From contig CACWUA010000005.1 in NCBI GenBank assembly GCA_902763905.1, positions 7,373 through 71,372 of the forward strand: 64,000 bases of DNA, read 5' to 3'. Source of the DNA: an uncultured Pseudomonadota bacterium (GTDB lineage Bacteria; Pseudomonadota; Alphaproteobacteria; RF32; CAG-239). This document shows, piece by piece, positions 2,348 to 16,287 of the stretch. Within the stretch, counting starts at the first letter, position 1; each line of letters starts with the position of its first letter. Below the pieces are notes generated by a model, which did not search any database, was not told the origin of the DNA, and saw only the letters and a program-made list of their open reading frames with translations. The position numbers and the translations under genes are program-made.

Positions 2348-2851
2348 ATGAAACTATACCATTACGCGCCCAAAGAAAATACCGTGAAAGAAAAAGGCCT
2401 GCTATCAATATCCAAAGGCCCGCGGGATTTGCGCGCTTATGCCCATCGTGCCGGTTCGGAAAACAAAGATGAGATAATGGCTTGGCTTGATAGAACTTTT
2501 GCCGGCAGAAGTCGGGCGATTTCGTGTTTAACCGAACCGATAAAATGGCAAGGAAACGATGCGGTGTTAAAAGCGATTGTTGACCGCTCGGCATTGTTTT
2601 CGTTTGAATTGGAAGATTTGTTGAAAGCCGGACTTGTGGAATCAATTTGGTGCAAAAACGGCTCGGATGCCGGCGGCTATAATGAAAAATTCTTTGAGGT
2701 CAAACCGGAAGAAATCGACTTGTCACCTTTAACTTGGGAAAAAGTCGATGCCGCAAAAGATTTGCTTTATGCAGTGGTGCGGCACTACCTGATTGTGCTT
2801 AAAGACGGCTACATTCCGCCTCAATATTTGCGTGAGGAGCAAAATGACTGA
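2348..2851 (+). CDS. hypothetical protein (167 aa)
   Basis: ORF whose stop overlaps the next start (ATGACTGA at 2844-2851), suggesting translational coupling. The N-terminal KLYHYAP...KGLLS only loosely recalls the strand-1 motif of ADP-ribosyltransferase-fold proteins and is not sufficient for a call. Confidence 0.55.
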   Translation: MKLYHYAPKENTVKEKGLLSISKGPRDLRAYAHRAGSENKDEIMAWLDRTFAGRSRAISCLTEPIKWQGNDAVLKAIVDRSALFSFELEDLLKAGLVESIWCKNGSDAGGYNEKFFEVKPEEIDLSPLTWEKVDAAKDLLYAVVRHYLIVLKDGYIPPQYLREEQND

Positions 2852-3419
2852 AGAAAATAATAAGAATTGTCCTGAAACTTGTCCGTACCTACAAGGTTGG
2901 CATGATTTTTGCGCCTTATTTATGCGAAAATTAGAAACATCGCAAGATGTAACGTGGCGGTGTGAAGAATGCTTAAATCCAGAACAGCGCAAAAATACGG
3001 CTAAAATGGCCGAATTGCGCGGTGATGCGCGAGCTGTTTCTTTTAGAGAAAATACCGGTTTTGATGGCAATACTTTAAAAGTTAATCATAAACGCGAAGA
3101 AGAAGGCTTGCGCCAAAAGTTTATCGGGTTTTTGGAAGATAAATTCGGCTCAAAACCACCGTTAGAGGGTAACACGGCCTTAAAAAATCTGATTGTTAAT
3201 TTATTTATGGCGTTGGATGCAACCGAGCGTAATATGATGAATGCGGTATTAAACGGCAAACGCGGTATGTCGCTGATTAAGGCGATTGATAAAGCTCCGA
3301 AAGATGAATCGCTTTTGCGGAATGTTCGCCGCGAACTTGAAGACCATTTTGAACAACACAAGCGCGATATAAAAATCGCCAGATACAATTACGAAAATGG
3401 CCAACGCGTAAACAGTTAG
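2844..3419 (+). CDS. hypothetical protein with Cys-rich N-terminus (191 aa)
   Basis: RBS GAGGAG at 2834-2839 and ATG 2844 overlapping the upstream stop. CPETCP...C...CEEC cluster suggests metal binding. The rest looks helical and charged. Confidence 0.55.
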   Translation: MTEENNKNCPETCPYLQGWHDFCALFMRKLETSQDVTWRCEECLNPEQRKNTAKMAELRGDARAVSFRENTGFDGNTLKVNHKREEEGLRQKFIGFLEDKFGSKPPLEGNTALKNLIVNLFMALDATERNMMNAVLNGKRGMSLIKAIDKAPKDESLLRNVRRELEDHFEQHKRDIKIARYNYENGQRVNS

Positions 3420-3478: not shown

Positions 3479-5998
3479 ATGGCAGATGACGGATTAAATA
3501 TTGATTTTGGTGAGATGTATGCTTTTGACATGGTGGATGGCGATAAAACTGTCGGCCAGATGAATGTCAGCGTGCATAAACAAAAAACGTCTTCTCGCGG
3601 CGAAAACCAGATTTATCCGAATTCATGGTTTATCGGCGATACCGAGAAATTAAAGCCTGTTTTGGAAATTGATGGTTTCGGTACAGTCGGAAATCAAGGT
3701 AAAGGCTATGGCCGTGCCGGTTTGCAACGTGCTTATGAAATGAGCCTTGAAAAAGGTTGCGATGGTCGCGTTGAAGTTCATGCTACTTGGGAAGCCGGTA
3801 AGTTTTACGAACATTGCGGATTTGTCGGCAAAAATGGCAAAAAAAATGGAAAGCCTGGAATTAAATATTTTGAGCCTACAGAGAAAAATGTTGCGGATTT
3901 GTATGAAGGCGGCAAACGTGAAAATTTGCGTTTGCAAACAGCTAAACCGATGGATTTTGGCGATATTGATATAGATGCTTTGTTGGCTGAAGCCGAAGTA
4001 AAACAACCGATAAAACGTTTGCGTGATGTAGAACAAATCTTTTTGGCAGGAAATACGCAGGTTGAAAGCAAAGCCGATTTAGCCAAGATTGTTGAAGAAC
4101 CGTGTTTAGCAGTTTGTGAGAATTTATACGATAAAAATATCTTAACTTATTGGAGTTCTGCCAATAAAAATGCGCCGGACAGAGCGTATGTGCTGATTCG
4201 CTATGAAAGCCTTGATGACAACAACAAAAAAATTGCCGATGATATGATTGCTAAGGGTATTTTGAGTGATGAACCGCGTTATCAATTTGATTCATTTAAT
4301 ACCGCGCAAGAATACGGCAAAGCCTTATATTTGGGGATAGATACCAATCCCGATATGGAGGTAGCGGAAATCTCGGAAAAATTATGCAAGATTGCCGCTG
4401 AATTTGCACCGCAAGACATAAAATACAATGTTTATACGCCGCAGTATTTGTTGGAAAATTATTTTGCAAGCGGCGGCAATAAATCGTTTGCGTTTCCAAG
4501 TCTCAAAACAGCAATTTGTGGAGAAAAAGATGAAGATATTAAACCGGATCGAGAAGCGATATTAACATCAATTAAAATTATGATGAAATACAAACAAGAA
4601 ACCGGTCTTTCTGCCGATGATATGCGTGAGGTTGCCGCTAAAATCGGTTGGCTTTATAATGAAGAAAACGGTTGTTTATATAAAGATAAAGAAACACTTC
4701 GTCGACACAATGAATATGTTAAACAAGAGGAACACATGGTTAGCTTCAAGGATATAGTTAATTTTAAGTATGGTGAACAAGAAGTTGATAAAGATATCAG
4801 AGAGTTGTTGGCAACTGACGAGTTTCATCCGGCTTACGCCGATGTGGTGCGAGAATTTTTAGCTCCGGAAATTGCAAATTGTAAAAAGTCCGTTGATGAT
4901 GACACTCACCATCTGCAAGTGCATATTCACGGCCCGATGTGCGAAGATGCTTTAACCCGCACACCTCAAGAACTTAATCCGGAATTGGATTGGTTAGGCT
5001 TTAATGAAGAAAAACGTAAATTCTGGTACGATTATTTCGTGCATCCGAAATTCGGTCGGCAAAAAACACCTCCTTTATCTATCTTGCAAAACAACGATAA
5101 AAAATTGATTATGTATCCGTTTGGCTTATCGAGAGACGCTTTTTATAGCGTATATACCGAAATTCATGAGCTTATGCACGGAATTCAGGCAAAATATGAT
5201 GATGCCCAAAAGGAAGACGAATATCTGAAAGAGCATTATGAGCTTTTGTATCAGGGCAAATCACGAGATGAGGCTAAGGAAATTCAGGCGGCCAAAAATC
5301 CGCACTTAAAAGAAGATACGCATTACGGTCGGTGCATCAGAGAAATGCAAGCGAATTCGGCGGCAACGACATATATGATGCTTAAAGCGGTGGAAACCGG
5401 CGATAAAGATTTGATAGCAAAAGTTGAACAACGTCTGCTTAATGAATCGGCTTCTATGTCCGGTGCTTTGATGAATGAACGTTTGGGTTTGGCATATTTT
5501 GAATATCCGGCAACAAAGAAGATTATTAAGGAAGTAAAACAAGGTAAATGTGCGCATTTATTAAACGAAAACGGCTTATTAAACTGGTCGGCGCTTTACA
5601 AATATACCAAAGATAAAGTTGCAGAGATGGGATATAGCAAAGAAGACATGAATGAATCACTTAATACTGCTAAAATGCTGAAAGAAATCAAAGCTAAGCA
5701 TCCGGACAGCAAAGAAGAATTTTTATCTGCCGTAGAAAAAGAAGCCATGAATGTGCCGCATCCGCACAATAAAATATTTAGCCAATTTGTTGAGGCTGAG
5801 CGTGACTATACACCGGATTCTTCACAGAATTTGCATCGATTTTATGATTATTTAGGCGTTAAAGACAATCGCGAGACGTTGCTTGAAAAAGCCGACAGCA
5901 AAAATGTGCCGCACATTGAGGAATACCGTCAAATATACACTAAGAACAAAGTATTGCAACAAAAAATACAAACGCAGCTTATAAACAAAGTTCGTTAA
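3479..5998 (+). CDS. large multidomain protein (839 aa): N-terminal GNAT-like acetyltransferase fold, C-terminal region with HExxH motif
   Basis: RBS AAAGGAA before ATG 3479. GNAT motif-A-like NQGKGYGRAGLQRAY...FYEHCGF lies in the first ~150 aa. HELMH (EIHELMHGIQ) at about residue 560. No signal peptide. Confidence 0.6.
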   Translation: MADDGLNIDFGEMYAFDMVDGDKTVGQMNVSVHKQKTSSRGENQIYPNSWFIGDTEKLKPVLEIDGFGTVGNQGKGYGRAGLQRAYEMSLEKGCDGRVEVHATWEAGKFYEHCGFVGKNGKKNGKPGIKYFEPTEKNVADLYEGGKRENLRLQTAKPMDFGDIDIDALLAEAEVKQPIKRLRDVEQIFLAGNTQVESKADLAKIVEEPCLAVCENLYDKNILTYWSSANKNAPDRAYVLIRYESLDDNNKKIADDMIAKGILSDEPRYQFDSFNTAQEYGKALYLGIDTNPDMEVAEISEKLCKIAAEFAPQDIKYNVYTPQYLLENYFASGGNKSFAFPSLKTAICGEKDEDIKPDREAILTSIKIMMKYKQETGLSADDMREVAAKIGWLYNEENGCLYKDKETLRRHNEYVKQEEHMVSFKDIVNFKYGEQEVDKDIRELLATDEFHPAYADVVREFLAPEIANCKKSVDDDTHHLQVHIHGPMCEDALTRTPQELNPELDWLGFNEEKRKFWYDYFVHPKFGRQKTPPLSILQNNDKKLIMYPFGLSRDAFYSVYTEIHELMHGIQAKYDDAQKEDEYLKEHYELLYQGKSRDEAKEIQAAKNPHLKEDTHYGRCIREMQANSAATTYMMLKAVETGDKDLIAKVEQRLLNESASMSGALMNERLGLAYFEYPATKKIIKEVKQGKCAHLLNENGLLNWSALYKYTKDKVAEMGYSKEDMNESLNTAKMLKEIKAKHPDSKEEFLSAVEKEAMNVPHPHNKIFSQFVEAERDYTPDSSQNLHRFYDYLGVKDNRETLLEKADSKNVPHIEEYRQIYTKNKVLQQKIQTQLINKVR

Positions 5999-6803
5999 TT
6001 TCTTTACCCTTCATTAAAGGCGGATTGGACGTATTTTTCTTTTCTTTTTTATAGTTTTGAAAATTTTCCTGATGCAATTTTTGCACTTGTTCAGCACTGA
6101 TTTTAATTAAACCAACTTTAGCAATATGTAAAGGATTATCAGATTGTAACAGCCGTCTGCACACCTCTAACGAAACAACACTGCATACGCCTTTCTCGCG
6201 GCATATCGGTTTATCATTTTGAAAAGTAGTTATTTGCATACCGGTCTCGCTGAATTTATTTTTCAAGTGTTCAAGAGTAGCATTTACTTCTTTTGAAAAA
6301 TCAAGATCGCCACCGTCTCTTTTTGCATGCTGCTCTAAAATCATAATATTCATCGCATTATTTTTTCTGTCTGCCTCAATGCATAAAGCAACGCCATGAG
6401 ACTCTTTATCTGAAGAATAAATTGTTAACGGTGCAACAAATTTTTGCAACACATCATTTTTATCGCCCATTACGGCAGATAAAATAACCGAAACGTCATC
6501 AAGTAAAACAAATTGATTTTTCTCCGGATTTATCATAATTTCACCGGAAATCAGGCTTTTATGGTCACTTTCTTGCAAGACATACATAAAAGCTTCATTT
6601 TGAGTTTTAGAATTCAGCATTACCGATGTATCTAAAAATCCGCAATCCTCTGTTTGTTTGGCAAAATTCCGGCATATATGGCTGGTTGCTTGCAAATTGT
6701 ATCCTGTAGTCGGAATTTTAACACCTAAATTAGGAGAGTTCGTAATATTCCTGTAACTCTCTTCATCTAAATGGCGGTATCCGTGTGTTTTACAATCAGG
6801 CAT
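5979..6803 (-). CDS. YopJ-family (peptidase C55 / Ser-Thr acetyltransferase)-like effector candidate
   Basis: Strong RBS AGGAGA before ATG 6803. His...Glu...Cys spacing and context match YopJ: SHGVALCIE, then NIMILEQ 21 aa later, then GVCSVVSLEVCRRL 50 aa later (YopJ has HFSVID / LILFEP / CGIFSLALAKKL). The 3' end overlaps the convergent 839-aa gene by 20 nt. Confidence 0.5.
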   Translation of the reverse strand: MPDCKTHGYRHLDEESYRNITNSPNLGVKIPTTGYNLQATSHICRNFAKQTEDCGFLDTSVMLNSKTQNEAFMYVLQESDHKSLISGEIMINPEKNQFVLLDDVSVILSAVMGDKNDVLQKFVAPLTIYSSDKESHGVALCIEADRKNNAMNIMILEQHAKRDGGDLDFSKEVNATLEHLKNKFSETGMQITTFQNDKPICREKGVCSVVSLEVCRRLLQSDNPLHIAKVGLIKISAEQVQKLHQENFQNYKKEKKNTSNPPLMKGKEINELCL

Positions 6804-6856
6804 ATTATCTCCTTTGATTAAAAATATATCACAAAGCAATATAAAGCGCAATACAT

Positions 6857-7802: not shown

Positions 7803-8675
7803 TCAATGTTGTCTCACCTTTTGAATAAGAAGAGGATTTTTCTGTGGTTGCTGTTTCTTTTCCGCCTTTGGCTTCGGTTCATCATCGTATCCCATTCGCA
7901 TCTGATCGCGTACCGGAGGAAATTTCGGTCCGTATCCTTTGCATTTTTCAATAAATTTTTCAAAATCCATTACTTTTTTTACATCAATATGATTTTCTTT
8001 CGCCCATTTTGTTACTGTTTCGATATTTTCCGGTGTTGTTATAATCGCTACCAATCTGCCGGGATTATCCTTAAAGTTGACATTATCTATCATCCAACCG
8101 GTTGAAGAAAGTTTATCATATTCCGTTTTATCTTTCGCCCTTATTGCAAATAAGCATCCGGCCGGATACGAAAAATTGCCGGTCAGATTCATATATTGTT
8201 CAACGGAAGTTCCGACCGTATCCTTATTTGTTACAGATATTTTGCCGCGCGGATCAAAACTGGTCGCGTGTCCCAATCTGTCTGCACCCGAAGATATTTG
8301 TCCGCTTTCGATAATGTGTTTTGCTCCTACAATATCTGTGCCGTGAAAACACCACGCTTCTTTGTGCTCGGCATATTTGGCAACTTTAGATGCAAATGTT
8401 TGTTTTTGCTGCATACGATATAAATAATCATTTGTTGTCGGTTCACGTAAAAAGGCTTGTTTTTCTTTAAGAGTATGAATTTCATTTACAGAAGCATTTA
8501 AAATATCTTGATAGGCGGCAATAGATGCTTTGTCATTTGCCTCTACAGCTTTTTTATATTCCATATTGTTTTTCTTTAATGAAATTTCCATTTTGTGCAG
8601 TCTGGTCTTTTCACGCATTTTATCGGTGATATAACCTTGGTGCAAAAGTTCCATTATTTTCTCGGTGTTTTCCAT
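7803..8675 (-). CDS. hypothetical protein (290 aa from ATG 8675), coiled-coil N-terminus, FHGT-motif C-terminal domain, basic/Pro-rich tail
   Basis: ORF extends to 8834, but the RBS-like AAGGAT precedes ATG 8675. WCFHGTDIVGAKHIIESGQI weakly recalls the H-motif of H-Y-E ADP-ribosyltransferases; this is unverified. Confidence 0.5.
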   Translation of the reverse strand: MENTEKIMELLHQGYITDKMREKTRLHKMEISLKKNNMEYKKAVEANDKASIAAYQDILNASVNEIHTLKEKQAFLREPTTNDYLYRMQQKQTFASKVAKYAEHKEAWCFHGTDIVGAKHIIESGQISSGADRLGHATSFDPRGKISVTNKDTVGTSVEQYMNLTGNFSYPAGCLFAIRAKDKTEYDKLSSTGWMIDNVNFKDNPGRLVAIITTPENIETVTKWAKENHIDVKKVMDFEKFIEKCKGYGPKFPPVRDQMRMGYDDEPKPKAEKKQQPQKNPLLIQKVRQH

Positions 8676-10621: not shown

Positions 10622-10650
10622 TTGACAATCATTTTGTTTTATATTACAGT
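10622..10650 (+). promoter_or_regulatory. candidate sigma70-type promoter upstream of the toxin-like gene
   Basis: TTGACA (10622-10627), a 17-nt spacer, then TACAGT (10645-10650), in a 300-nt AT-rich leader. Confidence 0.25.
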
Positions 10651-10820
10651 ACACAATACCAAAATAGTATATTTCTAAAAAATTTGCAACGGTTTTAACA
10701 CTTCTGCAATTTGATTATGCGTCCGCGCACAATAAGAAATATATGATTTTGGTGCTATTTTAACAACAAAATTTGGAGATAAAGAATGAACGTGAGAAAT
10801 TCAAATAAAAGGAGGCAACC

Positions 10821-12026
10821 ATGGATATATGGGATGAAATAAAAAAACTGTCCGGATATCAATCCGGAAACGGCGGAGTGGATAGTTACGGGGTTGACCA
10901 CAGCGGATTTTCAACCCGTGATGAGTTGGAATATCAAAGCGCGCGGTTGGCAAGAGAAAATCAACTGGCGGAGAATTTCAGCAAGCAAGGGATAGCCGAA
11001 GAAAACTACCCGCAGTTTGGCACTAACTTCTGGGGCGGTTCGCCTGAAAACAACTACGGTTTCGGCACTTCAAACATTAGGCAAAACATTGAAAACGTAA
11101 CAAATCAGTTGAACAATGGCGGATTTAGTGGCGGAATGAATGGCGGCGAATTTAACTCCGTCGCAAATAGCGGGCAAGTCACTACAAATTCCGACTATAC
11201 GGTCAATACCGAAAGCCTAGTCGGTAAACCGAGCAGTTATTTTCAGAATAATGGTGCGACTTATCCGCAGCAATCACCGACAGTCCAAAATGTCAGCAAT
11301 TATAATAACATTGATGCGCAAAAACAGGCACAAATATTACAAGCACAGCGTAATGCGGTCAATCAGATTTTGATGAACGGTATGGATGTGTTGTATGGAA
11401 TGAACCGAACCATAAACGGAATGACATTTGGCGGTTTGGACTATCTGGGGCAAAAATTCGGATTTGATTCACAGATGAACAATTATTTGCAGCTAAAAAA
11501 TCCGCAAGAACGTGAACTGGCGCAAAATGTCGGGCAACTTATCGGTTACGGAGGAAGTGCCTTAGTCGGCGGAGCATTGGCTAAAGCCGGATTGAATCAA
11601 GCAAATATTGCGTATAATGGCTATAAAATCGGTAAGAAATACGACCAACTTACTGATAATCCGTTTCAAGGCAATGGAACTGATGTTGTTGCTCGGATGA
11701 AGAATCATAACGGTGAACCGGTTGTTTTGCAACGCGGAGAAGCCATACAAGGGCCGAATGGTGAAGTAATAGTTCATGGTAAGACTTTAGAAAGAGAAAC
11801 CGGAACACTGCGTAATTATGGTCTGGATAAAGGAATATATCGTCATAATATCAATCGTTCTGATGCACAAAGAATTCCGAGAATTATTCAAAACAAACCT
11901 ACAAGTATAAGTCCACGTGGACAGTATATTTATAATGCGTATAGCAAAAATGGAAATTTTCAGGTTGTTACTTCACCTACAAAAAGCGGAACAACTATAT
12001 CATCAACATATTATTTAAAAAAATAA
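10821..12026 (+). CDS. full-length polymorphic-toxin/bacteriocin-like protein (401 aa): G/N/Q/S-rich N-terminal region, variable C-terminal domain
   Basis: Strong RBS AAAGGAGG at 10808-10815. No signal peptide. Residues 62-100 and 93-144 are repeated at the 5' ends of the two downstream cassettes. The C-terminal ~120 aa (GLDKGIYRHNINRSDAQRIPRIIQNKP...FQVVTSP) loosely resembles Barnase/EndoU/ColicinE5-D/RelE-like nuclease (PBECR) modules. Confidence 0.7.
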   Translation: MDIWDEIKKLSGYQSGNGGVDSYGVDHSGFSTRDELEYQSARLARENQLAENFSKQGIAEENYPQFGTNFWGGSPENNYGFGTSNIRQNIENVTNQLNNGGFSGGMNGGEFNSVANSGQVTTNSDYTVNTESLVGKPSSYFQNNGATYPQQSPTVQNVSNYNNIDAQKQAQILQAQRNAVNQILMNGMDVLYGMNRTINGMTFGGLDYLGQKFGFDSQMNNYLQLKNPQERELAQNVGQLIGYGGSALVGGALAKAGLNQANIAYNGYKIGKKYDQLTDNPFQGNGTDVVARMKNHNGEPVVLQRGEAIQGPNGEVIVHGKTLERETGTLRNYGLDKGIYRHNINRSDAQRIPRIIQNKPTSISPRGQYIYNAYSKNGNFQVVTSPTKSGTTISSTYYLKK

Positions 12027-12028
12027 AC

Positions 12029-12057
12029 GAAAGCCCTCAATGAGGGCTTTCCTCTTT
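12029..12057 (+). terminator. rho-independent terminator after the full-length toxin-like gene
   Basis: Perfect 10-bp stem GAAAGCCCTC/GAGGGCTTTC with an AAT loop, followed by a CTCTTT tract, 3 nt after the stop codon. Confidence 0.7.
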
Positions 12058-12320
12058 CAATCCCTCAACAAAGCTAGCTCTCGGTCAAGGATACAAACAG
12101 GCGATTAACAATTTCGTTCCTATATGTGAAAGAGTTTTTCCTATCTTTCTGTCAACGGTTCATGTTGCGCAGAAGATACAACAATAGGCGATTAAAATCT
12201 TTCATTCCTATTGGAGGAAAATACCTTAAGGTGTTTTGAATATAACACATTTTTGGTAAATGTCAATACATAAATTGAAAAATATTCTAAATATATACTT
12301 AAAGTTATATTTAAAAGTGA

Positions 12321-13103
12321 AACTATCCTATATACGGCACCAATTTTTGGGGTGGTTCGGCCGAAAATAACTACGGCTTTGGCACTTCCAATATTAAGCA
12401 AAATATTGAAAATGTTACAAATCGGTTGAACAACGGTTTTAGCAACACAGGTGTGCAAAATAATGCTCAGCAACTACAAATGCCTGCCGGAACGCAACAA
12501 CAAATAACCATGCCGAGTTATGAACTACAACAAAAGATGCAACAACCAAGTACTTGGGATAAAGTTAAAAACGCAGCGAATAATTTTGCCGGAGGAACGG
12601 AGGCTTTTTCGGTTGGTTATGCTACCGGTGCAACATTAGGAAACTTTGATGAAGAAATGGGAGCGGCAACTGCGGCTGTTACATTAAACCCAAATAATTA
12701 TAGTATGGGACGTGATGCAATCAGGCAGTTGCAAAATGATTTACAACAGCAGCATCCGTGGGCTTATGGGGTTGGTGAATTTACCGGCGCAATGACCACT
12801 CCGATGCATTTGGTAAAAGGGGACAATTTCAAACAGAAAGCGTTTAATGCCTTTACTGATACCTTAAATGCTTCCGCCGGATATGCCGAAAATTGGAACG
12901 ATTTTGGGACTAATCTGGCGGTAAACGGAGCGGCTAATATAATTGGGTTAAAAGCAGAACAATTACCATTATGGAGAGCATCGGGAAGACCTCTCGTGCA
13001 ATTTGGTAAAAAATTTATCAAGCAAGGAATAAATTCTTCTGCTGACAAAATGAAAAATATGCATTATAAGAAAGATGAAGACGAGGAAGAATACTACTAT
13101 TAG
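12321..13103 (+). CDS. start-less (orphan/silent) toxin cassette 2: conserved N-block fused to a distinct Gly/Ala-rich C-terminal domain
   Basis: Frame opens directly after an in-frame TGA (12318-12320) and encodes NYPIYGTNFWGGSAENNYGFGTSNIKQNIENVTNRLNNG, matching residues 62-100 of the 10821 gene. No ATG or RBS; the only start-like codon is the conserved Leu TTG at 12426. The C-terminus is unrelated, rich in small residues, with an acidic KKDEDEEEYYY tail. Confidence 0.6.
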   Translation, partial: NYPIYGTNFWGGSAENNYGFGTSNIKQNIENVTNRLNNGFSNTGVQNNAQQLQMPAGTQQQITMPSYELQQKMQQPSTWDKVKNAANNFAGGTEAFSVGYATGATLGNFDEEMGAATAAVTLNPNNYSMGRDAIRQLQNDLQQQHPWAYGVGEFTGAMTTPMHLVKGDNFKQKAFNAFTDTLNASAGYAENWNDFGTNLAVNGAANIIGLKAEQLPLWRASGRPLVQFGKKFIKQGINSSADKMKNMHYKKDEDEEEYYY

Positions 13104-13127
13104 TAAAATATAGCAAAGGAACAGAAT

Positions 13128-13472
13128 ATGGGGAAAAAGGTTATTATTTCTAGAGTTAATAAAGTTGTGTGGAGTATATTAAATTATGGATTAATAACCT
13201 TAATATACTTTGGTTTATTATTAATTTATTTACTTCATCACATAGTGCCTTTTTTTCCTATTCTGTTCTTGTTTGATTCTTGTTTTGTAGTTGGCTATCC
13301 GCTATTTTTGCGATATGTTCTAAAGCGAAAGTGGTTTGAGTGTACGAAAGATGATTATTTAGAATTAAAATACATTTCGATACCTTGGTTGATAATGGAA
13401 CTCGTAGTATTGTTATATTATAACAAAGCAACGTATTTTATAATCAAGACTGCTATGGAAAACAGCAACTAA
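13128..13472 (+). CDS. small polytopic membrane protein, candidate immunity protein for cassette 2
   Basis: Starts 24 nt after the cassette stop, RBS AAAGGAA. 114 aa with 3-4 hydrophobic helices. Confidence 0.55.
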   Translation: MGKKVIISRVNKVVWSILNYGLITLIYFGLLLIYLLHHIVPFFPILFLFDSCFVVGYPLFLRYVLKRKWFECTKDDYLELKYISIPWLIMELVVLLYYNKATYFIIKTAMENSN

Positions 13473-13517
13473 TAAATTGAAAAATATGTATTGCTATTAG
13501 TAAAAAAGGAACAGAAT

Positions 13518-13867
13518 ATGGAAAAAGAGGTTATTACCAAAGAAATAAAAGAGTTAACCTTGAAAGCAATAAATGCTATTCTTTCTATATTCTATATATT
13601 TGGTTTATTTACTATTTTAGCATTTCATGTAATAGCGCCTTTTTTCCTATTCTGTTCTTGTTTGATTTTTGTTTTTTAATCGGGTATCCGCTATTTTTGC
13701 GATACGTTCTAAAGCGAAAGTGGTTTGAGTGTACGAAAGATGATTACCTTTGTATAAGATATATTATGCTTCCATTGATAATTATTGAATTAGCCGTTCT
13801 GTTATGCTACCCGCATGAAACAATTATGGCAATTGACTTTTTGGCAGAAAGTGATTTCCTGAATTAA
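13518..13867 (+). pseudogene. frameshifted paralogue of the 13128 membrane (immunity-like) gene
   Basis: The leader and the block FFPILFLFD.CF..GYPLFLRYVLKRKWFECTKDDYL are shared with the upstream copy. The reading frame breaks because a T7 run (13250-13256 in copy 1) is T6 here (13640-13645). The two halves are ORFs 13491..13679 and 13658..13867. Confidence 0.6.
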
Positions 13868-13993
13868 CAGATGAATCATGTTAAAAAATCTCTAAAATGT
13901 TAAACAATGTGGCGAATCTGCACAAAGTTTAACATTTTTTTATTTTCTGTATTTTGCTCATTTTCAAAAGTGCGGATTTTGGGTAATATCTGA

Positions 13994-14692
13994 GAATGCA
14001 TTACAAATCAGTTGAACAACAGCGGATTTAATAATGGCGCAAATAATGGCCAAGTTTTTGCCAATTCCGACTATACAGTCAACACCGAAAGCTTAGTCGG
14101 CAAACCAAGCAGTTATTTTCAGAATAACAACTCTGTTTTTGTAAATAACAACGCTGGAGGTTTCGGAAATAATAAAACAAGCGGCGCTAATACAACAATA
14201 GGGCAACAGAATAATAATGTAGGAAGTAATAATTCTATTGTTCAAAGTATTACTGCATTAAATCCTATTAGTGCCGGTTATCAAATCGGACAGAAAATTG
14301 GTGAATTTGCTGCTGATACAAAGTTAGCATATGATTATTGGCAAAAGATGAATCAAACAGGAAACCAACTTGTTACAACGTTCGGTTCCGGACAAGGTGC
14401 TGATATAGATAATTATTACCATCCATTATTACAGTGCGAATTAGCAAAAATAAGTCCGCAAAGTCGAAATAATGGTATTGCTTTGGGTTATGCCAAAGAG
14501 TATCTTATGGATTATCCTAAAAAGAGGTTTTTACAACACCAAAGCCATGATGAAATTATGAAAGATAGTCGAAAAGACTTGCAAAACAATCTTTATGGTA
14601 GTAACTTAGGATATAATAATCCAAACAGAAGCTGTGAGGATTTACTGGATGACAGAAGAACACCTAATATGCGCAAATTAGGCATAAGGTGA
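13994..14692 (+). CDS. start-less (orphan/silent) toxin cassette 3: conserved N-block fused to a serum-amyloid-A-like C-terminal domain
   Basis: Frame opens directly after an in-frame TGA (13991-13993). It encodes ITNQLNNSGF...NSDYTVNTESLVGKPSSYFQNN, matching residues 93-144 of the 10821 gene. The C-terminal ~135 aa align by eye with vertebrate SAA (AYDYWQKM / DNYYHPLLQCELAKISP / KDSRKDLQNNLYGSNLG versus RAYSDMREA / DKYFHARGNYDAAKRGP / EDSLADQAANEWGRSG). Confidence 0.55.
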   Translation, partial: ECITNQLNNSGFNNGANNGQVFANSDYTVNTESLVGKPSSYFQNNNSVFVNNNAGGFGNNKTSGANTTIGQQNNNVGSNNSIVQSITALNPISAGYQIGQKIGEFAADTKLAYDYWQKMNQTGNQLVTTFGSGQGADIDNYYHPLLQCELAKISPQSRNNGIALGYAKEYLMDYPKKRFLQHQSHDEIMKDSRKDLQNNLYGSNLGYNNPNRSCEDLLDDRRTPNMRKLGIR

Positions 14693-14752
14693 TTATCAAG
14701 TGATATAGAGGGTGTTAACATCATCTAATGCCCTCTATATTTAATACGTGGA

Positions 14753-14965
14753 ATGTATAAAATGAAGAAAAATATATTAGAATCGATCTTATATGTATTT
14801 TATAAATGCGCATTGTACTTTATTGTAGCGGCTTTTACTGTTGTTCTTTTTATACAAATATTCTACATTTATGAAGAAAAGAAATTTATAGAGGACTGTG
14901 TTAAAGAAGGAGATACACAAGAGCATTGTCAAAGTATTTGGTCTGAGATAGATGTCTTAAATTAA
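14753..14965 (+). CDS. small single-TM protein with C-terminal CxxxxxxxC motif, candidate immunity protein
   Basis: 70 aa, one hydrophobic helix, then FIEDCVKEGDTQEHCQSIW. Paralogous to the next ORF. Confidence 0.5.
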   Translation: MYKMKKNILESILYVFYKCALYFIVAAFTVVLFIQIFYIYEEKKFIEDCVKEGDTQEHCQSIWSEIDVLN

Positions 14966-14982
14966 GGTAGAGGAAGATTGTG

Positions 14983-15183
14983 ATGAGCTTATTCAAAGAT
15001 ATATCAACAGACGTTATTAAACTATTGTACTGGATTGGGTTCTTTATTGCGTTATTTTTTATTGCAACTACAGCTTTTTATTATTGGGATTTCTATATAA
15101 ATTTGGAACAAAATACAAAATTTATTCAAGAATGTATGGATGAAGGTAATAGTGAAGAAGTCTGTAAAGGCAGAGTTTATTGA
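14983..15183 (+). CDS. small single-TM protein, paralogue of 14753..14965
   Basis: RBS GAGGAAG before ATG 14983. One TM helix, then FIQECMDEGNSEEVCKG, the same architecture as the upstream ORF. Confidence 0.5.
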   Translation: MSLFKDISTDVIKLLYWIGFFIALFFIATTAFYYWDFYINLEQNTKFIQECMDEGNSEEVCKGRVY

Positions 15184-15339: not shown

Positions 15340-15690
15340 ATGCCTAAAAATTTACTTCTGATGATGAAAAATAATAAAGAAAAAACGGCTCACCTCTGTT
15401 TTTGGGGAATGCTGTGCTTCAATTTATTATGTTTGAGTTTGACAATTTATACTATATTCACCTATGACGGTGGAACGGAAAATGCGAAAGTTTATTACGA
15501 AATTCGCGATATTAATATGGCGCACAATACATTTTCCGGTTTTATATTGAGCGAATATTTATCCGGTTTGTTGTTTGCATTTCCGCTGATTATATCGTGG
15601 CTATTTGTGCGCAAAATTACATTAAATGCGGTTATGTTGCAACTCTTGCCGGTTTTGGTTATTCTCGGTCAAATAGTGTTTTTTGATTAA
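15340..15690 (+). CDS. hypothetical polytopic membrane protein (116 aa)
   Basis: ORF with 3 hydrophobic segments and no recognisable motif. Confidence 0.45.
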   Translation: MPKNLLLMMKNNKEKTAHLCFWGMLCFNLLCLSLTIYTIFTYDGGTENAKVYYEIRDINMAHNTFSGFILSEYLSGLLFAFPLIISWLFVRKITLNAVMLQLLPVLVILGQIVFFD

Positions 15691-15714
15691 ATTCATAAAC
15701 AACGGAGTTGTAAA

Positions 15715-16287
15715 ATGGTAACAAAAGAAAGAATATATATGACATTTAAATATCTCGGGTGTTTTCTTGCATACAATATTTTATTGTGGACCGTGATATG
15801 GCTCATTGCCGAATTAGACCAAGACAAACTTGAGCTGATTGATTGCTTTGCGTTCGAATACGGATACATTACAAAAACACACAGTTATCAAAGTTATTTG
15901 CAAGGAGCTTGCACCTACCCGCAAATATGCACATGTGCCGTAAATGCCGAATGGATATTGTTTTTCTATATTTGGGCTTTGCCGATTTTTGTTTTTTATG
16001 AGTTTTTTCGGCGCAAAATCATTCCGTCGCAATATACCTATTTGTTTGTTTTTGGCGAAATTGCTTTTTGGTCGGTTATATGTTTTTTCTGCCAAGACAG
16101 CGCACCTTTTTTATGGTTTCCGCTCGGTAATACTTACAAAATCATCGCACCGATGGCGATTATTATGCTTGCATTACACAGCTTGCCACCCAAAGTGCTT
16201 AAAGTGCTGTCTATAATTATCGGCACGATTTACGGGTTATATTTTGGGTTCTGTATAGCAATGATTATTCCTAACTTTTTCCGATAA
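15715..16287 (+). CDS. hypothetical polytopic membrane protein (190 aa)
   Basis: ORF with about 5 hydrophobic segments, 24 nt after the previous ORF. No recognisable motif. Confidence 0.5.
   Translation: MVTKERIYMTFKYLGCFLAYNILLWTVIWLIAELDQDKLELIDCFAFEYGYITKTHSYQSYLQGACTYPQICTCAVNAEWILFFYIWALPIFVFYEFFRRKIIPSQYTYLFVFGEIAFWSVICFFCQDSAPFLWFPLGNTYKIIAPMAIIMLALHSLPPKVLKVLSIIIGTIYGLYFGFCIAMIIPNFFR

Follow-up and report, generated by a model that had tools for sequence, protein, structure and literature searches.

The 64,000-nucleotide (nt) stretch of DNA analysed here (the window; contig CACWUA010000005.1 of an uncultured alphaproteobacterium) contains a gene for a 401-residue protein, here called the main toxin (10821..12026, forward strand), which is followed by two start-less reading frames, the cassettes, and by several genes for small membrane proteins. 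On balance, we favour the interpretation that the locus encodes polymorphic antibacterial toxins with their immunity proteins and belongs to an undescribed family, with spare start-less cassettes and a delivery route like that of colicins and pesticin. A polymorphic toxin with orphan cassettes is a known arrangement, and what is new is the putative carrier domain, its route, and an RNase-fold module partnered with a small RNA.

The features expected generically of polymorphic toxin systems (Zhang et al. 2012, PMC3482391; Jamet & Nassif 2015, PMC4436062) are present: a conserved N-terminus joined to variable C-termini, adjoining predicted immunity genes, and orphan cassettes truncated at their 5' ends. 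A polymorphic-toxin locus had been proposed in a previous reading of the DNA letters alone (the sequence-only reading). The varied C-termini of the relatives, the occurrence of both cassettes as complete genes elsewhere, and the presence of a different cassette at the same site in a near-identical strain all support that proposal.

A conserved N-terminal domain joined to diverse toxin ends

A search of 5.8 billion proteins returned 320 relatives of the main toxin, every one of which belongs to an assembly of an uncultured "Alphaproteobacteria bacterium" sampled from the human gut or from ruminants. The first 100–145 residues are 80–97% identical among relatives whose C-termini differ completely. 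The alignment of 30 full-length relatives showed four parts: an N-terminal domain (N-domain), a linker, a mid domain, and a C-terminal domain. Residues G24, V25, H27, F30, D34, E35, Y38, Q39, R42, E46, G57, F70, and W71 of the N-domain are invariant. The linker that follows is disordered and low-complexity, rich in G, N, Q, S, and T, and very variable in length. The N-domain was found in only 278 clusters in an exhaustive HMMER search of 1.84 billion cluster representatives, for which the profile was built from short contig-end fragments returned by an earlier N-domain profile search. It always occupies residues 1–95, and the longest protein that carries it has 602 amino acids (aa).

The sequence-only reading had raised the question of whether the N-terminal block is fused to other C-termini in related genomes. 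It is fused to many, a good share of which are recognisable antibacterial enzymes. The C-termini of 82 N-domain representatives matched the Pfam families GH108 (11), PG_binding_3 (6), SAA (4), VgrG3-like C (3), Tlde1 (3), YkuD (2), SLT (2), pesticin (1), GH46 (1), and phage lysozyme (1), and those of the relatives of the main toxin matched Tlde1, YkuD, GH108 with PG_binding_3, and SAA. Scanning one genome per GTDB species gave 244 family loci, several per genome, and the records that contain them are nearly all titled as Alphaproteobacteria, Rhodospirillaceae, or "Azospirillum sp." metagenome-assembled genomes (MAGs) from gut or rumen.

The three toxin frames and the small open reading frames (ORFs) of the window had no match in Pfam and NCBIfam at E≤1 or in PHROGs at E≤0.1. 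A PDB profile search with the family profile gave chance matches only, no match to the N-domain was present among 2.9 million viral contigs, and a literature search for the N-domain motif strings returned nothing. Because of these database, profile, genome-scan, and literature-motif results, we conclude that the toxin family is genuine, narrowly distributed in gut and rumen Alphaproteobacteria MAGs, and undescribed, the last as the sequence-only reading had supposed.

Start-less cassettes and their predicted immunity genes

The sequence AGGAGG (10810–10815) precedes the ATG of the main toxin gene by 5 bases, and the N-terminus of the product, MDIWDEIKKLSGYQSGNGG, is without a hydrophobic signal-like stretch. 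The residues G, N, Q, and S together make up 45.5% of positions 1–145 and 51% of positions 56–160. A double-glycine leader in the N-terminal sequence was considered and rejected because the GG varies across the family and the sister strain L001 does not have these 14 residues. The 5' ends of the two cassettes are in-frame copies of internal blocks of the main gene: a repeat finder paired 11003–11119 with 12320–12436 (79% nucleotide identity) and 11137–11251 with 14013–14127 (80%), both in frame, as well as a short third repeat, 11091–11127 with 13994–14030 (84%). The only start-like codons of the cassettes are TTG 12426 and TTG 14012, which are located within or past the shared block and neither of which has a Shine-Dalgarno sequence. 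Downstream of the shared blocks, the two frames lead into C-termini that are not related to each other.

These results agree with the sequence-only reading, which had described a strong ribosome-binding site and no signal peptide in the main gene, a G/N/Q/S-rich segment of about 145 residues at its N-terminus, internal blocks copied in frame at two downstream 5' ends, cassettes devoid of an ATG or ribosome-binding site, and small membrane-protein ORFs after each cassette. Two of its details apply to cassette 1 only. The homology was said to begin directly after an in-frame TGA, which is true of cassette 1, where the frame opens with NYPIYGTNFWGG..., whereas the homology of cassette 2, ITNQLNN...SDYTVNTESLVGKPSSYFQNN, opens two codons past the TGA. 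The shared block of cassette 1 comprises residues 62–100 as described, whereas that of cassette 2 aligns from residue 91 and not from residue 93.

Both cassettes occur in other genomes as complete genes accompanied by the same kinds of small membrane proteins, which bears out their earlier interpretation as units of a C-terminal toxin end and its immunity gene. The frame of cassette 1 is 91, 84, and 81% identical to residues 62–end of the complete proteins P0107, P0105, and P0062, respectively. Its C-terminus is Gly/Ala-rich; cassette 1 had no match in Pfam or the PDB, and the PDB search with the cassette C-termini likewise gave nothing. In the related locus L091, a complete cassette-1-type toxin is followed after 28 nt by a 114-aa protein that is 86% identical (residues 41–114) to the product of the gene located downstream of cassette 1, and the same pairing is found in L001. 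The window contains a second, frameshifted copy of the 114-aa gene, the two ORF halves of which match the intact gene of L001. The frameshift may reflect decay to a pseudogene, phase variation, or a mistake in the assembly. A stand-alone 365-aa Peptidase_C39/C70-like protein (L091:2688-3785, minus strand) is encoded 1.5 kb upstream of the cassette-1-type toxin in L091, a single case that may be a coincidence.

Cassette 2 is 74% identical to residues 91–end of the full-length protein P0055. The cassette itself had no match in Pfam; however, comparison of its C-terminus with those C-termini of the family that match PF00277 (at E about 1e-16) gave an hhalign probability of 94% and an E-value of 1.2e-7. 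The C-terminus of cassette 2 is thus a divergent SAA-like (PF00277-type) toxin end. Ends of this type have been reported on PAAR-Rhs proteins of enterohaemorrhagic Escherichia coli (PMC7216683). The 70-aa ORF of the predicted immunity pair starts 61 nt after the cassette, and in L092 a full-length cassette-2-type toxin is followed by a pair of 69/70-aa proteins with 43% and 41% identity to the pair of the window.

Of the two further membrane-protein genes that end the locus, the one for the 190-aa protein clusters with ORFs in 7 loci; in L015 it is preceded by a full-length toxin of the family and by a transmembrane ORF of 118 aa. These two genes are probably orphan immunity genes, the toxin end of which is absent here. 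Across the family, a hydrophobic or exported ORF is located just downstream of 58 of 68 toxin genes. It appears from this survey that a C-terminus-specific immunity gene adjoins each toxin end, with the exception of the main-type C-terminus.

Turnover of toxin ends

Truncated copies of the toxin gene are not peculiar to the window. We found 31 of them in 24 of the 85 related loci, all on the toxin strand and downstream of full-length genes. Their breakpoints cluster at profile positions of about 45, 50, and 58–62, and most have a stop codon 0–7 codons upstream of the breakpoint and usually no credible start. Many are short remnants; others, like the two in the window, are full-length. Because the same truncation recurs in 24 of 85 loci at few breakpoints, the cassette layout is not due to chance.

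The sister strain L001 has a main toxin that is 97% identical to that of the window, at the same chromosomal locus, and the same cassette 1, which is intact. In this strain, however, what comes after an identical shared block in cassette 2 is a Tlde1 domain and then genes for two different membrane proteins. Locus L086 is the L018 locus in which the main C-terminus was exchanged for GH108 together with a convergent gene for an exported periplasmic immunity protein. Other genomes carry exactly the fusions that are expected from recombination at the shared blocks. This pattern is the hallmark of recombination that replaces C-termini, with the cassettes being displaced or kept in reserve. In our interpretation, the cassettes would also be used again: homologous recombination at the shared blocks would swap a displaced or reserve warhead into the expressed gene, and the immunity genes of the cassettes would keep guarding the cell against neighbours that express those toxins.

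The downstream frames may instead be decaying debris of past C-terminus replacements, with selection acting only on the orphan immunity genes. The cassettes have neither a start codon nor a ribosome-binding site, one immunity copy in the window is frameshifted, the two last membrane-protein genes are without a toxin end, and remnants of 36–67 codons are all that is left in many loci (L017, L018, L022, L044, L050, L082). However, both cassettes are open throughout their 232–260 codons in AT-rich DNA, they are 74–91% identical to full-length functional versions, the shared blocks have retained at least 87% aa identity with the main gene, and the sister strain has preserved the same cassette 1. 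We regard debris as rather unlikely. Debris and reserve are not mutually exclusive, and the sole difference between the debris explanation and the interpretation that we favour is whether re-use occurs.

Putative entry domain and putative RNase-like fold of the expressed toxin

The mid domain of the main toxin precedes at least two different extreme C-termini in the family (P0007, P0016, P0099, P0101). It is found only in variants with cytoplasmic-type C-termini and is absent from the periplasm-acting variants (Tlde1, GH108, SAA-like). Where an alternative C-terminus occupies the same mid domain, a soluble protein is encoded alongside. By analogy with the entry domains of CdiA C-terminal toxins (CdiA-CT; PMC8616854), the mid domain may serve for entry through the inner membrane.

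The C-terminal domain had no sequence-level match in Pfam or in the PDB profile search. Its AlphaFold2 model, calculated for the domain alone, had a predicted local distance difference test score (pLDDT) of 87.8 and a predicted template-modelling (TM) score of 0.80. The best Foldseek match of the model was the CdiA-CT of S. marcescens BWH57 (7m5f_C; E 9.8e-3, probability 0.99, TM-score 0.46–0.49), and the next matches were HigB2 and RelE, both at E>0.5. Residues R305, E307, K337, and H342 of the C-terminal domain are invariant. The CdiA-CT of structure 7m5f has a BECR RNase fold that is preceded by a cytoplasm-entry domain (PMC8616854). Because this best match has the same bipartite layout, the expressed C-terminus can be read as an entry domain followed by an RNase, a reading in which the fold is moderately supported and the activity and entry function are presumed. 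For the nature of the C-termini, which the sequence-only reading had left to structure prediction and profile searches, the results point to a BECR/RelE-like end on the expressed toxin and an SAA-like end on cassette 2.

The module of mid domain and C-terminus also exists without the N-domain, as proteins of 222–227 aa (P0097 and P0082) encoded in two different phage structural gene clusters (L093:6001-6684, L094:2177-2860, L095:6001-6669, L096:5122-5790). It adjoins terminase genes in one cluster and follows the major capsid gene in the other. Therefore, the expressed warhead of the window is shared with phages. A search for the mid domain and C-terminus in viral collections and cultured phages gave no match. 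The same module is furthermore fused to at least three other unannotated N-terminal regions in the same bacteria, represented by P0053, P0071, and P0102 (MSKAIG...), by P0037 and P0050 (MSYTTFFGDTFEDEHD...), and by P0070, P0095, and P0096. This suggests that these regions are further undescribed carrier domains.

A candidate convergent small-RNA gene downstream of the expressed toxin

For main-type toxins, which end in the mid and BECR-like domains, a search for a conserved protein immunity neighbour found none, a lack that the sequence-only reading had not noted. The DNA downstream of these toxins, which in the window corresponds to the gap 12027–12320, is conserved in all frames and contains a candidate small-RNA gene that is convergent with the toxin gene. 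Its order is promoter, CCTTAAGGTA at the +1 region, 7-bp hairpin with a conserved loop, GTATC, optional second unit, and terminator. The small RNA of the window has two hairpin units, one at 12172–12234 and a degenerate one at 12087–12149. Conservation across 8 loci extends from the −35 and −10 elements through the +1 region and the hairpin to the terminator. The promoter has an invariant TTGAC, a spacer of 16–17 nt, and TGnTAtAtT, and its two hexamers vary little or not at all between loci. In the 19 copies compared, pairing of the hairpin amounts to 95.5%, and compensatory changes occur in 6 of its 7 pairs (0 of 500 shuffles). Its G-U pairs are formed in the minus-strand reading only and would be A-C on the other strand, and the fold of the small RNA has a z-score of −4.05. 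A search of positions 12000–12350 against Rfam at E≤1 gave no match. The possibility that the small RNA encodes a small peptide was rejected, since the ATG in the loop is not conserved.

The small-RNA element is located only downstream of main-type C-termini or their remnants, which is the case in 10 of the first 85 loci. It is also present in five of six further metagenome contigs, the sixth being the replaced locus L086. The core element of the window differs from that of L002 at few positions, and the neighbouring C-termini are 55% identical in protein. The phage-borne P0097 and P0082 modules have the same arrangement of terminator, element, and promoter. The gene directly follows every main-type toxin module, the phage-borne copies included. 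With one to three hairpin units, it was seen in the window, L002, L010, L013, L018, L034, L050, L082, L083, L085–L090, and L093–L096. Pairing of the small RNA with the translation-initiation or coding region of the toxin, beyond the terminator, was not above that of shuffled sequences.

The small-RNA gene thus appears to be an integral partner of the RNase-fold module, and its candidate roles are those of an antidote (type III-like), of an antisense regulator acting through the 3' overlap, or another. It probably controls or neutralises the expressed RNase module in place of a protein antidote. We further speculate, while considering the complete proposal unlikely, that the mid and BECR-like module is held in check by a small-RNA antidote (type III-like or 3'-overlap antisense), that the pair is mobile between phages and the toxin family, and that it is combined with a new N-domain, the route of which matches no described system. 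If true, this would be the first polymorphic, exported toxin to have its immunity conferred by an RNA. The toxin-RNA pair of phages and toxin loci is in any case a candidate for RNA-based neutralisation outside the classical toxin-antitoxin types.

Delivery of the toxins

No TPS/FHA, VENN, PAAR, Rhs, LXG, DUF1020, or MIX-type domain was found in Pfam and NCBIfam scans of the window proteins, and none of the 278 clusters joins the N-domain to PAAR, VgrG, or Rhs. Clustering of the ORFs of at least 90 aa encoded within 10 kb on either side of each of the 85 loci gave no recurrent cluster of secretion, adaptor, VgrG, PAAR, Hcp, or type VI secretion system (T6SS) genes. The only recurrent neighbours besides the toxins are immunity-like membrane or exported proteins and a 152-aa upstream gene. 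Secretion genes are likewise absent from five Pfam-annotated contexts and from the 10 largest downstream ORFs of the window. No secretion system is linked to the locus in the window, where the only transport genes seen are those of an efflux pair of AcrB/HlyD type, at a distance of about 45 kb, and, upstream, of an ABC exporter. A literature search on secretion systems of the taxon found nothing relevant. The sequence-only reading had recognised no known trafficking module, which is consistent with these searches, with the absence of PHROG matches, and with the restriction of the N-domain to the N-terminus of proteins of at most 602 aa.

The 152-aa gene, which the window does not contain, is located about 100 nt upstream of the toxin in 18 loci (for example, L036:66-527, L092:158-619, L055:9217-9897), irrespective of the type of C-terminus, and its long forms have an N-terminal XRE-type helix-turn-helix (HTH). 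A role as an immunity or secretion factor was rejected because of this independence of C-terminus type and the XRE HTH. Because the long forms carry the HTH, the gene probably encodes a regulator that is dedicated to controlling expression of the toxin. Type IV pilin-like genes (Bundlin/PilS) are located within a few kilobases of the toxin in L002 (13183-13758), L015 (5053-5766), and 5 other loci, which may be mere synteny between related genomes.

A convergent ORF with a signal peptide or lipoprotein signal lies just downstream of 18 of 68 toxin genes, and co-directional immunity genes for membrane proteins accompany 36 of 68. The convergent layout of immunity genes is known from colicin M, pesticin, and pore-forming colicins and is usually not found in T6SS pairs. 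Delivery is the least certain step of our interpretation, and we propose only tentatively, with somewhat less than even confidence, that the toxins are self-contained bacteriocins of the colicin/pesticin kind. This mode is favoured because the toxin is self-contained, because a domain at Met1 is combined with disordered sequence, and because convergent exported ORFs and, at part of the loci, a regulator are present. The pesticin domain of one family member was also counted for it. In such a mechanism, the producer would keep synthesis of the toxin, which has no signal peptide, under tight regulation and would then release it. The N-terminal domain would import it through the envelope of the target, so that N-domain and linker form the module that reaches the target periplasm. 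Toxins of the cell wall and membrane would sit directly on N-domain and linker, and the RNase would need the additional mid domain to cross the inner membrane.

Several points weigh against this interpretation. A recognisable TonB or TolB box is missing, and the invariant D-H-S-x-F motif may bear no more than a loose likeness to the TolB box of colicins. Neither a lysis gene nor a receptor-binding domain was identified in the loci, and the host organisms are uncultured. The BECR assignment rests on one moderate Foldseek match (E about 0.01, TM-score about 0.47). The full-length AlphaFold2 model is poor (pLDDT 47) and unusable for the fold of the N-domain or the mid domain; therefore, the roles of these domains are deduced from architecture and not from structure. 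Contact-dependent systems, such as contact-dependent inhibition (CDI), Rhs, MafB, and LXG, are where arrays of orphan cassettes and a multiplicity of loci in one genome are more typically found, and ends of the Tlde1, VgrG3-C, and SAA-like kinds are familiar above all from effectors of T6SS or Rhs systems (PMC7216683).

By analogy with MIX, FIX, and RIX, the N-domain could instead be a loading tag for a contact-dependent machine encoded elsewhere, most likely a T6SS, which would inject the toxins. We regard this as the main rival route, less likely than not and somewhat less likely than the bacteriocin mode. Such cargo would explain the short conserved N-terminal marker without a signal peptide, the several loci per genome, the orphan cassettes, the 36 of 68 co-directional membrane immunity proteins, and the overlap of the repertoire (Tlde1, VgrG3-like C, GH108, SAA-like) with that of T6SS/Rhs effectors (PMC7216683). 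However, no T6SS, VgrG, PAAR, Hcp, or adaptor-like cluster recurs near the 85 loci, and none is present in the five annotated contexts or among the 10 largest downstream ORFs of the window. Pfam recognised no marker domain, fusions of the N-domain to PAAR, VgrG, or Rhs do not occur, no protein that carries it is longer than 602 aa, and a quarter of the loci have convergent genes for periplasmic immunity proteins. That the family consists of ejection proteins of a particle (phage, gene transfer agent, or tailocin) with the N-domain as a packaging signal is very improbable: the module of mid domain and C-terminus does occur without the N-domain in two phage structural clusters (terminase, portal, capsid) and cell-wall hydrolases of phage type (GH108, phage lysozyme, SLT) make up many of the C-termini, but the N-domain is absent from the 2.9 million viral contigs and the main protein from PHROGs, the loci are surrounded by genes of housekeeping function (mrp, hflKC, groEL, rpoC) and not by phage genes, and virion proteins would not need a dedicated immunity gene for each C-terminus.

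Genomic setting

The toxin locus is flanked by ordinary chromosomal genes, including, on the upstream side, one of the Bax1-I family and one that is methyltransferase-like and, on the downstream side, mrp/apbC, hflK/hflC, and htrA. The G+C content of the whole window is about 40%. It is 0.29–0.35 at 13.1–16.3 kb, 0.41 in both the main gene and cassette 1, and 0.44 in the flanks. The claim of the sequence-only reading that the locus is richer in A+T than its flanks is thus correct for the segment at 13.1–16.3 kb and does not extend to the main gene and cassette 1. Farther upstream, between the ABC exporter and the Bax1-I gene, is a block that includes the ORFs 3479-5998, 2348-3419, 7803-8675 (minus strand), and 5979-6851 (minus strand). 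For the ORFs of this block, of 839, 167, 208, 290, and 290 aa, no Pfam family is recorded in the sister contig. The features of the toxin locus are listed in Table 1.

Table 1. Features of the toxin locus, in window coordinates.
Feature	Position	Strand	Description
Promoter-like site TTGACA-17-TACAGT	10622..10650	+	5' of main toxin gene; from consensus scan only, 10/12 matches
Family-defining N-domain, residues 1-100	10821..11120	+	presumed trafficking module
Two recombination blocks common to main gene and cassettes	11003..11251	+	11003-11119 with cassette 1; 11091-11251 with cassette 2; 79-84% nt identity
Mid domain, about residues 166-275	11316..11645	+	helical, Gly-rich (YGGSALVGGALAKAG); conserved as a block
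C-terminal toxin domain, residues 274-401	11640..12023	+	putative BECR/RelE-like RNase fold (AlphaFold2 and Foldseek)
Candidate small RNA, about 205 nt	12025..12232	-	convergent with toxin gene
Shared hairpin terminator	12029..12051	-	U-tail on minus strand; scored as terminator for minus strand only
Small-RNA promoter TTGACA-16-TGnTATATT	12239..12266	-	best promoter-like site in 10.5-16.4 kb, 11/12 matches
Cassette 1	12321..13103	+	start-less 260-codon frame; first 39 codons copy main residues 62-100
Predicted cognate immunity gene of cassette 1	13128..13472	+	114 aa, multiple transmembrane segments; 25 nt after cassette
Second 114-aa immunity copy, broken	13518..13867	+	direct repeat, 81%; T7->T6 frameshift near 13640
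Cassette 2	13994..14692	+	start-less 232-codon frame; 5' end copies main residues 91-144
Predicted cognate immunity pair of cassette 2	14753..14965, 14980..15183	+	70 aa and 67 aa, paralogous; single transmembrane segment, Cys pair
Two further membrane-protein genes	15340..16287	+	116 aa and 190 aa; absent from sister strain L001

Comparison with known systems

With the N-domain, the known weapons that bacteria use against each other gain a further carrier. The gut and rumen Alphaproteobacteria that have it are widespread but uncultured, and they are almost wholly unexplored. With 100 aa, the domain is compact and portable, and it occurs naturally in fusions with ten or more kinds of antibacterial enzyme. 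If it holds its own information for import or export, it would represent a new route across the Gram-negative envelope and a possible tool for protein delivery. The family also offers a natural experiment on two-step delivery, in which periplasmic warheads are attached directly to the N-domain and linker and the RNase is attached through an extra domain.

Among the closest known systems are the loci of CdiA-CT, Rhs-CT, and MafB-CT with orphan cassettes. In these, too, a single expressed gene combines a conserved N-terminus with a toxin end that varies, each C-terminus has its cognate immunity gene, and downstream truncated cassettes share a homology block. With CdiA-CT the locus further shares the putative bipartite C-terminus of entry domain and nuclease (PMC8616854). 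However, the proteins of the window family are only 200–600 aa long in their entirety, their conserved part is a novel 100-aa domain, and the homology blocks are located within the trafficking domain and linker and not at a pre-toxin motif. Unlike CdiA, Rhs, and MafB, they have no TPS/FHA, VENN, YD/Rhs, PAAR, DUF1020, or signal peptide, and no CdiB or MafA partner. The marks of CDI (TPS, FHA, pre-toxin motif, neighbouring cdiB) were not found by Pfam/NCBIfam scans or neighbourhood clustering, and those of Rhs/PAAR systems (YD/Rhs repeats, linkage to PAAR or VgrG) were not found in the proteins or in the 85 neighbourhoods. For MafB, there is no signal peptide and no Pfam match to DUF1020; for LXG toxins of the type VII secretion system, no Pfam match to LXG and no WXG100-like conserved cluster among the neighbours.

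T6SS cargo effectors with MIX, FIX, or RIX are similar in having a short N-terminal marker on polymorphic toxins that include Tlde1 and lysozymes, an adjoining immunity gene, and several unlinked loci per genome. The window family differs from them in the frequency of convergent genes for periplasmic immunity proteins and in the absence of T6SS cargo marks, since neither MIX, FIX, or RIX matches nor linkage to vgrG, hcp, paar, T6SS, or adaptor genes was found near the 85 loci.

Colicin M, pesticin, and M- and S-type pyocins also have no signal peptide, an N-terminal region of translocation type, and disordered Gly-rich sequence. Their C-terminal killing domains act in the periplasm (muramidases, and in the window family one pesticin domain) or in the cytoplasm (RNases), their membrane or periplasmic immunity genes are often convergent, and, as at part of the loci described here, a regulator is located next to the toxin gene. 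In contrast to colicin-type bacteriocins, the loci of the window family are chromosomal and multi-copy, have no lysis gene, and include arrays of truncated cassettes, which are not a colicin feature. There is also no sequence relation to the T or R domains of colicins and pyocins: the N-terminal 165 residues had no match in the colicin, pyocin_S, and cloacin families of Pfam and no sequence relative in the PDB.

The small-RNA gene invites comparison with the RNA antitoxins of toxin-antitoxin systems. Some type I systems (par/fst, txpA-RatA) have the same convergent layout and shared hairpin terminator, and the repeated units, of which there are one to three here, recall type III (ToxIN). As in type I and type III systems, a gene for a small structured RNA is linked to a protein of RNase-type fold instead of a protein antidote, and the element of the window is also found on phages. 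The small RNA of the window differs in having no complementarity to the toxin mRNA beyond the terminator. Its partner is a protein of 220 aa, or 400 aa when fused, and not the small hydrophobic peptide of type I systems. Whereas the repeats of ToxIN are located upstream of the toxin gene and on the same strand, those of the window are downstream and antisense.

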